Of a stretch of DNA of 64,000 nt, positions 52,266 to 57,188 are shown in pieces. A model generated the notes under the pieces. That model worked only from the letters and a program-made list of their open reading frames with translations, did no database searches and was not told where the DNA came from. The stretch is taken from assembly GCF_048403405.1 (NCBI RefSeq), contig NZ_CP183129.1; one strand, 5' to 3'. This DNA comes from Escherichia coli (lineage in GTDB: Bacteria; Pseudomonadota; Gammaproteobacteria; Enterobacterales; Enterobacteriaceae). The translations under genes and the position numbers were made by a program. Every line of letters begins with the position of its first letter. Within the stretch, counting starts at the first letter, position 1.

Positions 52266-53615
52266 TTGGCGGGTTTTAACATCAAACATTGGTTTGCAGA
52301 TGGCGCGTTTCGCACCATTATTCGCAATAGCGCCTGGTTAGGCTCCAGTAATGTCGTGAGCGCCTTGCTGGGTTTGTTGGCGCTCTCGTGTGCCGGTAAA
52401 GGGATGACGCCCGCCATGTTTGGCGTACTGGTGATTGTGCAATCGTACGCCAAGTCGATCAGCGATTTTATTAAGTTTCAGACATGGCAGCTGGTGGTTC
52501 AGTACGGAACACCAGCATTAACCAACAATAATCCGCAGCAATTTCGCAATGTCGTCTCTTTTTCCTTCTCGCTGGATATCGTCAGCGGCGCGGTGGCGAT
52601 TGTCGGCGGCATTGCCTTACTCCCTTTTCTTTCCCATTCATTAGGTCTGGATGACCAAAGCTTTTGGCTGGCAGCGCTGTATTGCACGCTCATTCCTTCA
52701 ATGGCTTCCTCCACGCCGACCGGCATTCTGCGTGCGGTAGATCGCTTCGATCTAATTGCTGTACAGCAAGCGACGAAACCTTTTCTGCGCGCAGCGGGGA
52801 GCGTCGTAGCCTGGTATTTTGACTTTGGTTTTGCGGGTTTTGTTATTGCCTGGTACGTGTCGAATCTGGTTGGCGGCACCATGTACTGGTGGTTTGCCGC
52901 GCGCGAATTACGCCGCAGAAATATCCATAACGCCTTCAAATTGAATCTGTTTGAGTCTGCCCGACACATTAAAGGCGCGTGGAGTTTTGTCTGGTCAACC
53001 AACATTGCCCACTCCATCTGGTCGGCACGTAACTCGTGCAGCACAGTGTTGGTGGGGATCGTGTTAGGACCCGCTGCCGCCGGGTTATTTAAAATCGCCA
53101 TGACATTCTTCGACGCCGCCGGAACGCCAGCGGGTTTACTGGGTAAAAGTTTTTACCCAGAGGTGATGCGTTTAGATCCGCGCACCACCAGACCGTGGTT
53201 GTTAGGCGTGAAGTCAGGTTTACTGGCGGGCGGAATCGGTATTCTGGTGGCGCTCGCGGTGTTGATCGTCGGCAAGCCGCTCATTTCGCTGGTGTTTGGC
53301 GTTAAGTATCTCGAAGCGTATGACCTGATTCAGGTGATGCTGGGCGCAATTGTGATCTCGATGCTGGGCTTCCCTCAGGAGTCATTGCTATTGATGGCGG
53401 GAAAACAGCGCGCTTTTCTCGTGGCGCAAACCATCGCCTCAATCGGCTACATCGTATTGCTGTTCATGTTCTGTCATCTGTTTGGCGTGCTGGGGGCTGC
53501 ATTTGCTTACTTCGGTGGGCAATGTCTGGATGTGGTGTTCTCGCTAATTCCGACCTTAAAGGCATTTTTTCAGCGCCATTCCTTGCTTTATAACTCAGCC
53601 GGAGAGAAATCCTGA
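52266..53615 (+). CDS. yghQ: MOP-superfamily (Wzx/MurJ-like) flippase-like membrane protein YghQ, full length
   Basis: 449 aa polytopic membrane protein; the tracked ORF begins with TTG, so the exact start is uncertain. Confidence 0.75.
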   Translation: MAGFNIKHWFADGAFRTIIRNSAWLGSSNVVSALLGLLALSCAGKGMTPAMFGVLVIVQSYAKSISDFIKFQTWQLVVQYGTPALTNNNPQQFRNVVSFSFSLDIVSGAVAIVGGIALLPFLSHSLGLDDQSFWLAALYCTLIPSMASSTPTGILRAVDRFDLIAVQQATKPFLRAAGSVVAWYFDFGFAGFVIAWYVSNLVGGTMYWWFAARELRRRNIHNAFKLNLFESARHIKGAWSFVWSTNIAHSIWSARNSCSTVLVGIVLGPAAAGLFKIAMTFFDAAGTPAGLLGKSFYPEVMRLDPRTTRPWLLGVKSGLLAGGIGILVALAVLIVGKPLISLVFGVKYLEAYDLIQVMLGAIVISMLGFPQESLLLMAGKQRAFLVAQTIASIGYIVLLFMFCHLFGVLGAAFAYFGGQCLDVVFSLIPTLKAFFQRHSLLYNSAGEKS

Positions 53616-54439
53616 TGATGAGAAAATATTTCCCGCTTGAGGCGAGCGAGCGTCTATTTGTTGCGATTGAAGAAGATGATGTTGTTGATGCACAGGTCAG
53701 TTTGCCGCCGACTATCGCACTAAGTTGTACCATCGAAATCATCCATGATAATTACGCGTTATGCCTGCAATTCTGGCTCAATGGCGTCAATCGCCAGGAG
53801 TTACTGCGTTTAATATGCAAACAGGCCAAAGGCGATGAGCTGACTGCTGATGAGCGCAAACAATTTAAATACATGCGAGCGCGCTACAAGCACCTGCGTT
53901 TTGCGCAACGGCTGTATTTAAAAAAGCATCAGGCCGGATTTTTATTCGGCAAAACGACCGTTTTTTTGGGGCGTTTTCAGGACGGCTTTCGTAACGGTAA
54001 GAAAAATATTGTGTCGTATTACGGCAACCTGTTACGGGTTTATTTAAGCTCTCCGGTCTGGTCGTTGGTGAACTATTCATTACGCCATAGCCAGTTAGAA
54101 AGCGTAAGCGGTTTTATTGCCTATCGGCAAAAGCAAATGCATACCCTGAAAGAGATAATTGCCAAATCGCGACTAACTGGCAGGGAATTTCATGATGTGC
54201 GAAAAATCATCAGCCAGCAGGTTTCTTATTACGACACCCTAAGATCGCTTGATCCTGAAAATAAAGAAGCGTTACAGATTTCCCGCTTCCTCGCCGCCAT
54301 TAATGGCCTGATGGGGGATAAACATGACGACATGGTGGCGGATGATATGGAAAACCGCCATTCGTATGATGCACCGATGGCGCTGGATAGCGATATTCGT
54401 CAGCGCTTAGAACTGCTGATTTCGCGTTTTCCGCTATAA
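53615..54439 (+). CDS. Hypothetical protein, translationally coupled to yghQ
   Basis: 274 aa ORF; ATG overlaps the yghQ stop (TGATGATG) with a GGAGAG ribosome-binding site; no family recognised. Confidence 0.6.
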   Translation: MMRKYFPLEASERLFVAIEEDDVVDAQVSLPPTIALSCTIEIIHDNYALCLQFWLNGVNRQELLRLICKQAKGDELTADERKQFKYMRARYKHLRFAQRLYLKKHQAGFLFGKTTVFLGRFQDGFRNGKKNIVSYYGNLLRVYLSSPVWSLVNYSLRHSQLESVSGFIAYRQKQMHTLKEIIAKSRLTGREFHDVRKIISQQVSYYDTLRSLDPENKEALQISRFLAAINGLMGDKHDDMVADDMENRHSYDAPMALDSDIRQRLELLISRFPL

Positions 54440-54447
54440 CCGGAGCA

Positions 54448-55011: not shown

Positions 55012-55041
55012 AAAACTCAAAGGATTGAGGGCGTTAGTGAG

Positions 55042-56112
55042 ATGAAGCTGGTTGAACACTACATCATGCGTGGTACGCGCCGTCTGGTGCTGATTATCGT
55101 CGGTTTTCTGATCTTTATTTTCGCCAGCTACTCCGCACAGCGTTATCTGACCGAAGCGGCAAATGGGACATTAGCTCTTGATGTTGTGCTGGATATCGTT
55201 TTCTACAAAGTGCTGATTGCACTGGAGATGTTGTTACCTGTTGGACTGTATGTGTCAGTTGGCGTGACGCTAGGGCAGATGTATACCGATTCGGAAATCA
55301 CAGCTATCTCTGCGGCGGGGGGCAGTCCGGGACGCTTGTACAAAGCCGTTCTTTATCTGGCGATACCGCTAAGTATTTTTGTCACCCTTCTGTCGATGTA
55401 TGGTCGTCCGTGGGCTTATGCGCAGATTTATCAACTGGAGCAACAGTCACAGTCGGAGCTGGATGTTCGCCAGTTGCGGGCAAAGAAATTTAACACTAAC
55501 GATAACGGACGAATGATCCTTTCGCAGACGGTTGATCAGGATAATAATCGCCTGACTGACGCGCTGATTTATACTTCTACTGCCAATCGAACCCGCATTT
55601 TCCGCGCCCGTTCGGTTGATGTGGTTGACCCATCACCTGAGAAACCGACCGTTATGTTGCATAACGGGACCGCCTATCTTCTCGATCATCAGGGGCGTGA
55701 CGACAACGAACAGATCTACCGTAATCTGCAATTACATCTGAATCCGCTGGATCAAAGCCCTAACGTCAAACGCAAAGCAAAATCGGTCACGGAGCTGGCG
55801 CGCTCCGTCTTTCCAGCCGATCATGCCGAACTGCAATGGCGACAAAGCCGTGGCCTGACAGCATTGTTGATGGCGCTGCTGGCCATTTCATTAAGTCGGG
55901 TAAAACCGCGGCAAGGGCGATTTTCAACATTATTGCCACTGACGTTGCTGTTTATTGCCATTTTTTATGGCGGCGACGTCTGCCGTACGCTGGTGGCTAA
56001 CGGCGCGATTCCCCTCATTCCTGGTTTGTGGTTAGTACCCGGACTCATGCTAATGGGCCTGCTGATGCTGGTCGCACGCGACTTCTCTTTGCTGCAGAAA
56101 TTTTCCCGATGA
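55042..56112 (+). CDS. LptF/LptG-family (YjgP/YjgQ) permease, first paralogue
   Basis: 356 aa; N-terminal pattern similar to LptF (YxxRxxxxxxxxxxxxF, TESEIT-like TDSEIT); polytopic. Confidence 0.8.
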   Translation: MKLVEHYIMRGTRRLVLIIVGFLIFIFASYSAQRYLTEAANGTLALDVVLDIVFYKVLIALEMLLPVGLYVSVGVTLGQMYTDSEITAISAAGGSPGRLYKAVLYLAIPLSIFVTLLSMYGRPWAYAQIYQLEQQSQSELDVRQLRAKKFNTNDNGRMILSQTVDQDNNRLTDALIYTSTANRTRIFRARSVDVVDPSPEKPTVMLHNGTAYLLDHQGRDDNEQIYRNLQLHLNPLDQSPNVKRKAKSVTELARSVFPADHAELQWRQSRGLTALLMALLAISLSRVKPRQGRFSTLLPLTLLFIAIFYGGDVCRTLVANGAIPLIPGLWLVPGLMLMGLLMLVARDFSLLQKFSR

Positions 56113-57188
56113 ATGTTTTCAGTCGCTATTTAATCCGTCATCTCTTTCTCGGTTTTGCCGCCGCCGCAGGGCTATTGCTGCCGCTTTTTACCACCTTCAA
56201 CCTGATTAACGAACTGGATGATGTCAGCCCGGGCGGTTATCGCTGGACTCAGGCGGTGCTGGTGGTGCTGATGACCTTACCGCGTACACTGGTCGAACTT
56301 TCGCCGTTTATCGCCTTATTGGGAGGGATTGTTGGCCTGGGGCAGTTATCGAAAAACAGTGAGCTTACCGCCATTCGCAGCACTGGGTTTTCTATCTTCC
56401 GTATTGCACTGGTGGCGCTGGTTGCCGGGATATTGTGGACTGTTTCGTTAGGCGCGATAGATGAGTGGGTGGCGTCGCCATTGCAGCAACAGGCGCTGCA
56501 AATCAAATCGACTGCCACCGCGTTGGGGGAGGACGATGACATTACCGGCAATATGCTTTGGGCCAGGCGCGGTAATGAATTTGTGACGGTGAAATCGCTG
56601 AACGAGCAGGGCCAGCCTGTGGGCGTGGAGATATTTCATTATCGCGACGATCTCTCGCTCGAATCCTACATTTTTGCACGCAGTGCCTCCATTGAAGACG
56701 ACAAAACGTGGATCCTGCATGGTGTGAATCATAAAAAATGGTTGAATGGCAAAGAAACGCTGGAAACATCAGATAATCTTGCCTGGCAATCGGCCTTCAC
56801 CAGTATGAATCTTGAAGAGTTATCGATGCCGGGAAATACTTTTTCTGTCCGTCAACTTAATCATTACATCCATTATTTGCAGGAAACCGGGCAACCCAGC
56901 AGCGAATACCGCCTTGCACTGTGGGAAAAACTGGGACAACCCATCCTGACCCTGGCGATGATTTTGCTGGCTGTGCCGTTTACCTTTAGTGCCCCGCGTT
57001 CGCCTGGGATGGGTAGCCGTCTCGCTGTAGGCGTCATCGTGGGCTTACTCACCTGGATCAGCTATCAAATCATGGTCAATCTGGGGTTGCTATTTGCGTT
57101 GAGCGCACCTGTTACCGCGCTCGGTTTACCGGTAGCGTTTGTGATGATGGCGTTGAGCCTGGTGTATTGGTATGACAGACAACATTAA
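56109..57188 (+). CDS. LptF/LptG-family (YjgP/YjgQ) permease, second paralogue
   Basis: Start set at the ATG at 56109 overlapping the upstream stop (ATGA); about 359 aa; N-terminus MNVFSRYLIRH resembles LptG. Confidence 0.8.
   Translation: MNVFSRYLIRHLFLGFAAAAGLLLPLFTTFNLINELDDVSPGGYRWTQAVLVVLMTLPRTLVELSPFIALLGGIVGLGQLSKNSELTAIRSTGFSIFRIALVALVAGILWTVSLGAIDEWVASPLQQQALQIKSTATALGEDDDITGNMLWARRGNEFVTVKSLNEQGQPVGVEIFHYRDDLSLESYIFARSASIEDDKTWILHGVNHKKWLNGKETLETSDNLAWQSAFTSMNLEELSMPGNTFSVRQLNHYIHYLQETGQPSSEYRLALWEKLGQPILTLAMILLAVPFTFSAPRSPGMGSRLAVGVIVGLLTWISYQIMVNLGLLFALSAPVTALGLPVAFVMMALSLVYWYDRQH

Follow-up and report, generated by a model that had tools for sequence, protein, structure and literature searches.

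Probable transport and accessory genes of a 13-gene sphingolipid locus in Escherichia coli, including a second LptF/LptG pair

Five intact plus-strand open reading frames (ORFs) occupy positions 52266-57188 of a 64-kb stretch of an Escherichia coli chromosome (contig NZ_CP183129.1; referred to below as the window and counted from its first letter), which runs from cpdA-parE through hyb, gss, pitB and yghT to glcC. They encode YghQ, a 274-residue protein with a predicted CHAD-like fold, YtfJ2, and the permease-like proteins LptF2 and LptG2. We consider it probable, on the evidence of the sequences, that a 13-gene sphingolipid locus of enterobacteria has in these genes its half for transport and accessory functions, and that the full route outlined below operates, including LptF2 and LptG2 (LptF2G2) working on the housekeeping ATPase LptB. 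What the sequences show is family membership, conserved linkage, purifying selection, retention of the glutamates used for docking LptB, and a substrate pocket that has been remodelled. For E. coli, all steps of transport, the part played by LptB and the nature of the lipid are inferred.

The lipid cluster that neighbours the five genes is the E. coli ceramide cluster, consisting of spt, acpR, cerR, aasR and yghO (bCerS, bacterial ceramide synthase). Spt, AcpR and AasR of strain BL21 (ECD_02854, ECD_02853 and ECD_02851) make 3-oxo-sphinganine when expressed; AcpR bears 4'-phosphopantetheine, AasR acylates E. coli AcpR, and ECD_02852 and yghO (ECD_02850) are listed as epi and aca, the homologues of the reductase and the N-acyltransferase (PMC9386255). 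In the route that we propose, Spt, AcpR, AasR, YghO and CerR would make (dihydro)ceramide, the head group of which would probably be modified by YghR, YghS and YghT (YghR/S/T) together with the CHAD-fold protein. YghQ, a candidate for this step, would move the lipid to the periplasmic leaflet. LptF2 and LptG2 would be the membrane part of an Lpt-type ABC extractor that has no ATPase of its own; it would borrow the housekeeping LptB, as in Caulobacter, and hand the sphingolipid to the periplasmic and outer-membrane Lpt parts. YtfJ2 would be a periplasmic accessory specific to Enterobacterales.

LptF2 and LptG2

LptF2 scores 318.4 bits on TIGR04407, the curated NCBIfam equivalog model for LptF (cut-off 230), and 64.8 bits on the LptG model. 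LptG2 scores 303.4 bits on TIGR04408, the equivalog model for LptG (cut-off 240), and 85.4 bits on the LptF model; the Pfam counterpart of these models is PF03739. Both proteins align from end to end with the solved LptF and LptG chains, and share 30% (LptF2) and 27% (LptG2) identity with the housekeeping K-12 proteins, whose genes are located between pepA and yjgR. Profile scores and alignments thus identify LptF2 and LptG2 as true LptF/LptG-family paralogues that are not the housekeeping genes. A previous reading of the window, made from its letters without database searches (the sequence-only reading), had placed an LptF/LptG-like pair outside the essential lptFG locus. This was borne out, and profile searches did not move the permeases into an unrelated family. 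The same reading had pointed to the lack of an adjacent LptB-type ATPase. None is indeed present: no ORF of the locus combines a Walker A motif with an LSGGQ-type signature, and the sole ABC-ATPase ORF of the window (6557-7375) belongs to a FecCD-type siderophore importer 45 kb away. However, this is not unusual, since the housekeeping K-12 lptFG pair has no adjacent lptB either, and an absent neighbouring lptB is therefore normal for the family. The label "LPS export permease" (LPS, lipopolysaccharide) given to lptF2 and lptG2 by the Prokaryotic Genome Annotation Pipeline (PGAP) is probably misleading.

That the pair may still engage an LptB-type motor is suggested by the coupling helices. 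In the housekeeping proteins, the coupling-helix glutamates LptF E84 and LptG E88 dock LptB (PMC5082905). The residue equivalent to LptF E84, E85 of LptF2 (in ...YTDSEITA...), is kept in all 47 orthologues, and that equivalent to LptG E88, E85 of LptG2, in 46 of 47. The substrate pocket has been remodelled. LptG K34, K40, K41, R133 and R136 bind lipid A phosphates or inner core, and the K34E substitution is lethal (PMC6744409). In all 47 LptG2 orthologues, K34 is replaced by N, D or T, K40 by D or E, K41 by D and R133 by L or Q; E. coli LptG2 itself has N, D and D at the positions of K34, K40 and K41, and the alignment of the first transmembrane segment of LptG and LptG2 has no gaps between two anchor motifs. 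Basic character is kept at LptF R33 (R) and K317 (R) and at LptG K62 (R) and R136 (K), while the LptF inner-core contacts K322, Q248 and R263 are lost in LptF2. The pattern fits an extractor that would still be coupled to an LptB-type motor but would no longer be fitted to lipid A. The replaced LptG lysines argue against LPS as the cargo, not against membership of the family, and the lost LptF contacts suggest a non-LPS substrate without proving one. Substitutions of LptF R212 by G, S or C bypass LptC (PMC9972910). The equivalent position in LptF2 is Ala, Ser, Gly or a deletion, but as two alignments disagree there and the assignment is ambiguous, we give this comparison little weight.

Conservation of the locus and its accessory proteins

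To place the five genes in their genomic context, we used an alignment of 15 homologues of the 274-residue protein and one genome per species, which gave 79 loci, and searched 10 kb either side of each with the 13 E. coli proteins. The full set of 13 genes was found in 33 of these loci, all from Enterobacterales (Escherichia, Pseudocitrobacter, Hafnia, Citrobacter, Serratia, Pantoea, Erwinia, Sodalis, Rosenbergiella, Pluralibacter and others). The genes occur in at least four orders. Besides that of E. coli, there is one of Serratia/Pantoea in which the spt operon comes upstream, one of Sodalis/Rosenbergiella in which lptG2-lptF2 is divergent from yghQ, with ytfJ2 placed between the CHAD-fold gene and spt, and one of Erwinia/Pantoea coffeiphila. 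Throughout, lptF2 adjoins lptG2 (44 of 44 loci), and the CHAD-fold gene is directly 3' of yghQ in 66 of the 79. Because the neighbourhood is conserved across genera despite rearrangement, the E. coli genes can be tied to the lipid cluster.

The 13 genes are under purifying selection: dN/dS, the ratio of nonsynonymous to synonymous substitution rates, is 0.03-0.16 for every one of them in comparisons with E. whittamii, Pseudocitrobacter and Hafnia, and all 13 ORFs are intact in the window. Among 5426 complete E. coli genomes, 4090 (about three quarters) hold at least 80% of a 5.4-kb region used as query, at 95-100% identity, and the other 1336 fall below 80% coverage. In K-12, IS5 (insH9) stands in place of about 8 kb, starting with codon 356 of yghQ and extending to the 5' end of yghO (MG1655 3130146-3131340 compared with window 53331-61700), so that the 3' end of yghQ, the CHAD-fold gene, ytfJ2, lptF2, lptG2, spt, acpR, cerR, aasR and the 5' end of yghO are lost. 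The K-12 products are truncations or fusions, namely a YghQ of 355 residues and a YghO of 390 residues with a new N-terminus. Published papers on K-12 yghQ deal with the truncated gene and are uninformative here. The K-12 record describes YghO, a ceramide synthase homologue, as a "putative DNA-binding transcriptional regulator", which is probably misleading.

Outside Enterobacterales, the locus is smaller. In the Xanthomonadales Luteibacter, Rhodanobacter and Dyella, yghT/S/R, aasR, cerR, acpR, spt, yghQ and the CHAD-fold gene form one run, and neither ytfJ2 nor lptF2G2 was found within 10 kb. Sphingomonadales loci consist of yghS/R-yghT-yghQ-CHAD-fold gene only, with a looser version in Acetobacteraceae. 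Since the core occurs in taxa whose loci lack YtfJ2 and LptF2G2, the genes divide into a widespread core (YghR/S/T, YghQ and the CHAD-fold protein) and an Enterobacterales add-on (YtfJ2, LptF2 and LptG2), and YghQ and LptF2G2 are not an obligatory pair. The conserved core block shared with Sphingomonadales and Acetobacteraceae is new here.

Several of these loci carry features of their own. A block of two to three YghR/S/T-like P-loop genes, a YghQ-like gene and a CHAD-fold gene, with no spt nearby, is seen in Sphingomonadales (L061, L064-L078, L081, L082) and in Acetobacter and Komagataeibacter (L084-L086); in Sphingobium (L064) it lies near a GT4 glycosyltransferase gene. In the locus of Rhodanobacter sp. 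L36 (L055, 10804-19619), which has no LptF2G2, genes for an MdtA/MdtB/MdtC-type RND pump and a NodT-family outer-membrane channel stand between the CHAD-fold gene and yghO. The pump could be an alternative sphingolipid exporter or a chance neighbour, and the Dyella and Luteibacter loci (L059, L062, L058) show the same gap of about 9 kb between these two genes. An OlsC/LpxO-like lipid 2-hydroxylase gene between yghR and aasR of the same Rhodanobacter locus (3525-4283) suggests that the acyl chain of the sphingolipid may be hydroxylated in this organism.

The 274-residue protein, left as a coupled unknown by the sequence-only reading, is predicted to be all-helical (pLDDT 96.9) and, according to this model, has a CHAD-like fold, an assignment that is new here. 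It came from fold comparison only, not from sequence searches: no match was found in NCBIfam, in a PDB profile search or in Pfam, where CHAD (PF05235) did not appear even at E = 10, and identity to solved CHADs is 9-17%. Its predicted helical fold and its conserved His and basic residues are those of CHAD domains, and its invariant residues are basic, His or acidic (R88, H193, R196, D123 and D238). The protein has no predicted transmembrane segment and no signal peptide, and is thus taken to be soluble. Its homologues form about 200 clusters at 50% identity, and those from Sphingomonas, Zymomonas, Acetobacter, Komagataeibacter and Gluconobacter in AFDB/UniProt are named CHAD domain-containing. 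As it is soluble and travels with YghQ and YghR/S/T in taxa without LptF2G2 and YtfJ2, the CHAD-fold protein is less likely to belong to trafficking than to be a partner in head-group formation or biosynthesis. The sequence-only reading of all five genes as a dedicated lipid-transport system is therefore supported in part: the protein families and the conserved linkage to the lipid cluster agree with it, but the genes are not one trafficking module, as the soluble CHAD-fold protein follows YghQ and YghR/S/T. The CHAD-fold gene occurs in tandem in two Luteibacter genomes (L049 10001-11800; L058 9152-10816), and Pluralibacter has an extra lone copy (L025, L033) away from its 13-gene locus (L026, L029). 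Elsewhere the fold is found in a 564-residue double-domain protein and within proteins of 660-1155 residues (P0124, P0251, P0257, P0259, P0269).

YtfJ2 was correctly recognised as YtfJ-like before: it scores 215.7 bits on TIGR01626 (cut-off 151.1), matches PF09695 with E = 2.9e-60 and is 54% identical to K-12 YtfJ. A hydrophobic N-terminal segment followed by VQA|HNF indicates a signal peptide, and Foldseek returned thioredoxin and peroxiredoxin folds (E = 1e-7, TM 0.5-0.6), while a PDB sequence search gave no match. We model YtfJ2 as a cysteine-free periplasmic protein of thioredoxin-like fold, which is new here. A role as a thiol oxidoreductase feeding periplasmic CerR was considered and rejected because YtfJ2 contains no cysteine. 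In Serratia, Sodalis, Shimwellia and some Erwinia (L002, L003, L016, L018, L019, L024, L032, L036 and others), the YtfJ of the locus is nearer to the K-12 housekeeping YtfJ than to E. coli YtfJ2. E. coli may therefore owe its two copies to a duplication within its own lineage; alternatively, the ancestral copy may be the one in the locus. Our literature search found nothing functional on YtfJ, and no paper that ties CHAD domains, YghR/S/T or YtfJ to sphingolipids.

YghQ is polytopic, with several hydrophobic segments. It matches PF01943 (Polysacc_synt) with E = 1.1e-8 over residues 19-280, with a second weak stretch at 316-438, and PF13440 with E = 1.2e-7. These profiles agree, if weakly, with the flippase assignment made before, and point to a MOP/Polysacc_synt-family membrane protein and candidate flippase. 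YghR/S/T show the Walker A and DRYPQ motifs but lack an ABC signature, and the matches of YghS and YghT to dTMP-kinase-like profiles are weak (22-25 bits against cut-offs of 83-193); a PDB sequence search with YghR gave no match. As a source of the missing transporter ATPase they were rejected, being dTMP-kinase-like and without the ABC signature. The gene yghT is kept in the locus across Enterobacterales, Xanthomonadales and Sphingomonadales. The PGAP label "dTMP kinase" for yghS and yghT is probably misleading, as the scores are far below the cut-offs.

Known systems and rival explanations

That a second LptF/LptG pair could serve sphingolipids has a precedent in Caulobacter, where CC_1168, CC_1156 and CC_1155 (LptC2, LptF2 and LptG2), together with CC_1166, were proposed in 2024 to carry phosphosphingolipids to the outer membrane; CC_1166, the proposed flippase, belongs to IPR002797/PF01943, the family of YghQ (PMC11324152). 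More recently, Caulobacter lptF2, lptG2 and lptC2 were found to be deletable only if the anionic sphingolipid is not made, and LptF2 and LptG2 to bind each other and the single LptB (Uchendu, Isom & Klein, bioRxiv 10.64898/2026.04.12.717747, April 2026). The same preprint notes lptF2/lptG2 in alpha- and gammaproteobacterial sphingolipid loci and draws the locus of E. coli UTI89 in its Fig. 2B. A second, cargo-specific Lpt pair is thus not the oddity that the sequence-only reading took it for. As with Caulobacter LptF2/LptG2 (CCNA_01214/01213), the E. coli pair is encoded within or beside spt/acpR/cerR/aasR/bCerS, with no copy of lptB in the locus, and both loci encode a Polysacc_synt-family candidate flippase. 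They differ in that the E. coli locus lacks LptC2 and the CPG2 head-group genes (cpgA-C, CC_1152/1153), and has YghR/S/T, the CHAD-fold protein and YtfJ2, none of which is in the Caulobacter gene list. The idea of such a system in E. coli agrees with a mechanism that has been described in Caulobacter, and the E. coli locus has been noted before, so the idea is not new. Four parts appear not to have been described: the CHAD-fold partner, the conserved YghRST-YghQ-CHAD block, YtfJ2 and the acidic pocket of LptG2.

Compared with LptB2FGC of E. coli (lptFG at pepA; PDB 6MHU, 6MIT, 6S8H), LptF2/LptG2 share the family, the length and the full-length alignment, the order of F then G with a stop/start overlap, the coupling-helix glutamates and an ATPase encoded elsewhere. 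They differ in an identity of 27-30%, in the replaced phosphate/core contacts and lost LptF core contacts, in having no Arg at the position of LptF R212 (where the alignment is ambiguous), and in being dispensable and missing from K-12. YghQ resembles the MOP flippases Wzx and MurJ in being polytopic and in matching PF01943, PF13440 and the NCBIfam "MOP flippase family protein" model, but scores low. The known substrates of MOP flippases are undecaprenyl-pyrophosphate-linked glycans, and the E. coli locus has no glycosyltransferase. The 274-residue protein shares conserved His and basic residues with the polyphosphate-binding CHAD domains (PF05235; Ricinus 6QV5, Streptomyces PptA 6RN5, E. coli YgiF 5A61), from which it differs in having no Pfam hit, in standing alone rather than fused to a CYTH domain, and in always lying beside a MOP-family membrane protein and P-loop kinase-like genes.

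Several observations weigh against our reading of the five genes as part of a working sphingolipid export route. The match of YghQ to the MOP flippase model NF007773 is weak (34 bits against a cut-off of 273); the Xanthomonadales and Sphingomonadales loci have YghQ and the CHAD-fold gene without LptF2G2 within 10 kb; and the putative orthology of the E. coli pair to CCNA_01213/01214 rests on the legend of Fig. 2B and the discussion of the preprint. K-12 and about a quarter of complete genomes are viable without an intact locus, and our literature search found no report of a sphingolipid from wild-type E. coli. Promoter and terminator scans of the region showed no enrichment over shuffled sequence.

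The division of the locus into two parts leads to the closest rival, in which ytfJ2-lptF2-lptG2 alone would serve transport and yghS-yghR-yghQ-CHAD, with yghT, would make a head group or another envelope molecule, YghQ handling a phosphorylated lipid-linked intermediate rather than flipping finished ceramide. We regard this as possible but rather unlikely. It would account for the roughly 20 Sphingomonadales loci, and more loosely those of Acetobacteraceae, in which the YghS/R-YghT-YghQ-CHAD block stands without Spt, YtfJ2 or LptF2G2 within 10 kb, for the position of the CHAD-fold gene directly after yghQ in most loci, for a soluble protein with basic, His or acidic invariant residues, and for a distant CHAD-fold homologue encoded near a YghQ-like gene, a GT4 glycosyltransferase gene and a CTP-transferase-like gene. 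Yet the block is interleaved with spt-acpR-cerR-aasR in Enterobacterales and Xanthomonadales, all taxa that have it are known or predicted sphingolipid producers (taxa from PMC9386255 and PMC11324152), and a glycosyltransferase is missing from the E. coli locus. The two-function idea refines the sphingolipid export reading and does not contradict it. A bolder form of that reading is one that we hold only tentatively: E. coli and related bacteria would make an undescribed sphingolipid with a head group built by YghR/S/T and a phosphate-binding CHAD-fold protein, flipped by YghQ and extracted by LptB2F2G2 through the acidic LptG2 pocket with YtfJ2 as a new periplasmic accessory, and YghRST-YghQ-CHAD, which Sphingomonadales, Acetobacteraceae and Xanthomonadales also have, would be a widespread unrecognised step in the sphingolipid biology of bacteria. 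An acidic instead of a basic LptG2 pocket would then imply a cargo whose head-group charge differs from that of lipid A.

It could also be argued that LptF2G2 extracts LPS, as a spare machine or as a variant suited, for instance, to modified LPS, and lies beside the lipid cluster by chance; the PGAP names are lptF and lptG, the equivalog cut-offs are passed and some pocket residues stay basic (LptF R33 and K317, LptG K62 and R136). The changes in the pocket and the linkage to spt make this very improbable: LptG K34, K40 and K41 have become neutral or acidic in 47 of 47 orthologues, K34E is lethal for LPS export, the LptF contacts K322, Q248 and R263 are gone, at least four rearrangements have failed to separate the pair from spt, and K-12 has lost it while keeping the housekeeping lptFG. 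Alternatively, the locus may be a silent relic in E. coli, intact but unexpressed or non-functional and heading for the loss seen in K-12. The IS5-associated deletion in that strain, the 1336 complete genomes with incomplete coverage and the lack of a native E. coli sphingolipid in the literature that we searched would agree with decay. We think a decaying relic improbable because of purifying selection on the genes, and it sits poorly with 13 of 13 intact ORFs in the window, with the 4090 genomes that retain the region at 95-100% identity and with the activity of the cloned BL21 Spt, AcpR and AasR.

The export of a sphingolipid by E. coli would matter because, before the Caulobacter preprint of 2026, it was not understood how sphingolipids get to the outer membrane of bacteria, and E. 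coli is the most tractable organism for testing it, LptB, LptC, LptA and LptDE being best understood there. K-12 lacks the locus by nature and can be given it back. Should the genes prove active, a second outer-membrane lipid, missed by standard work on K-12, would be present in about three quarters of E. coli strains, pathogens and BL21 among them, and would bear on the envelope barrier, sensitivity to polymyxin and detergents, and host recognition. The residue differences of LptG2 give direct access to the question of how an Lpt extractor selects what it carries.

Layout of the region

The features of the locus are collected in Table 1. As the sequence-only reading had it, the five genes lie on the same strand with overlapping or closely spaced boundaries: the TGA of yghQ and the ATG of the CHAD-fold gene have one base in common (CCTGATGATGAG; the junction was given before as CCTGATGATG), the permease genes are joined by ATGA, and the gaps from yghQ to lptG2 are -1, 8-11, 30 and -4 nt. 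Spacing is tight as far as 57188, as described, but the same-strand run does not start at yghQ; it begins upstream, at yghS (50717). The transcription unit is therefore likely to be yghS to lptG2, a structure read from the spacing of the genes, since the promoter and terminator scans did no better than on shuffled sequence. A hairpin fills nearly the whole 34-nt gap between the stop codons of lptG2 and spt and has a T-rich tail on the minus strand only; it is probably a shared terminator.

Table 1. Positions of the genes and of other features of the sphingolipid locus in the window
Feature	Coordinates	Strand	Remarks
yghT, P-loop kinase-like	49851..50543	-	Divergent from yghS; Walker A, no ABC signature
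Promoter-like site	50639..50667	+	TTGTCA-17-TATTCT, 9/12 matches; AT-rich yghT-yghS intergenic region; weak evidence
yghS, P-loop kinase-like	50717..51430	+	Probable first gene of the plus-strand operon; 31-nt gap to yghR
yghR, P-loop kinase-like	51462..52220	+	44% identity to YghS; 45-nt gap to yghQ
yghQ, MOP/Polysacc_synt membrane protein, candidate flippase	52266..53615	+	TTG start; full length, 449 aa
CHAD-fold protein gene, 274 aa ("Ybl138"/"hypothetical")	53615..54439	+	Start overlaps yghQ stop
ytfJ2, secreted YtfJ family	54451..55011 (alternative start 54448)	+	TIGR01626, PF09695
lptF2, LptF-family permease paralogue	55042..56112	+	TIGR04407
lptG2, LptG-family permease paralogue	56109..57188	+	TIGR04408; ATGA overlap with lptF2
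GC-rich hairpin, 16-bp stem, 3-nt loop	57186..57220		Top terminator-like match; between convergent lptG2 and spt
spt, serine palmitoyltransferase	57223..58395	-	PGAP name; BL21 orthologue ECD_02854
acpR, specialised acyl carrier protein	58395..58643	-	BL21 orthologue ECD_02853
cerR/epi, NAD-dependent epimerase/dehydratase-family reductase	58675..59589	-	ECD_02852
aasR, acyl-AcpR synthetase (fatty acyl-AMP ligase)	59586..61307	-	ECD_02851
yghO, bacterial ceramide synthase (aca/bCerS) homologue	61679..62821	+	ECD_02850; across the divergent gap from aasR

Far from the sphingolipid locus, the window has other features of its own. Between parE and ygiN (3484-11246) are genes for an IS200C transposase, a TonB-dependent siderophore receptor, the FecCD-type ABC importer and a MurR/RpiR regulator. 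A stretch of low GC content at 12001-14000 (36% against about 51%), between mdaB and qseC, contains an orphan Hcp-family type VI secretion gene, a hypothetical gene and ygiZ.

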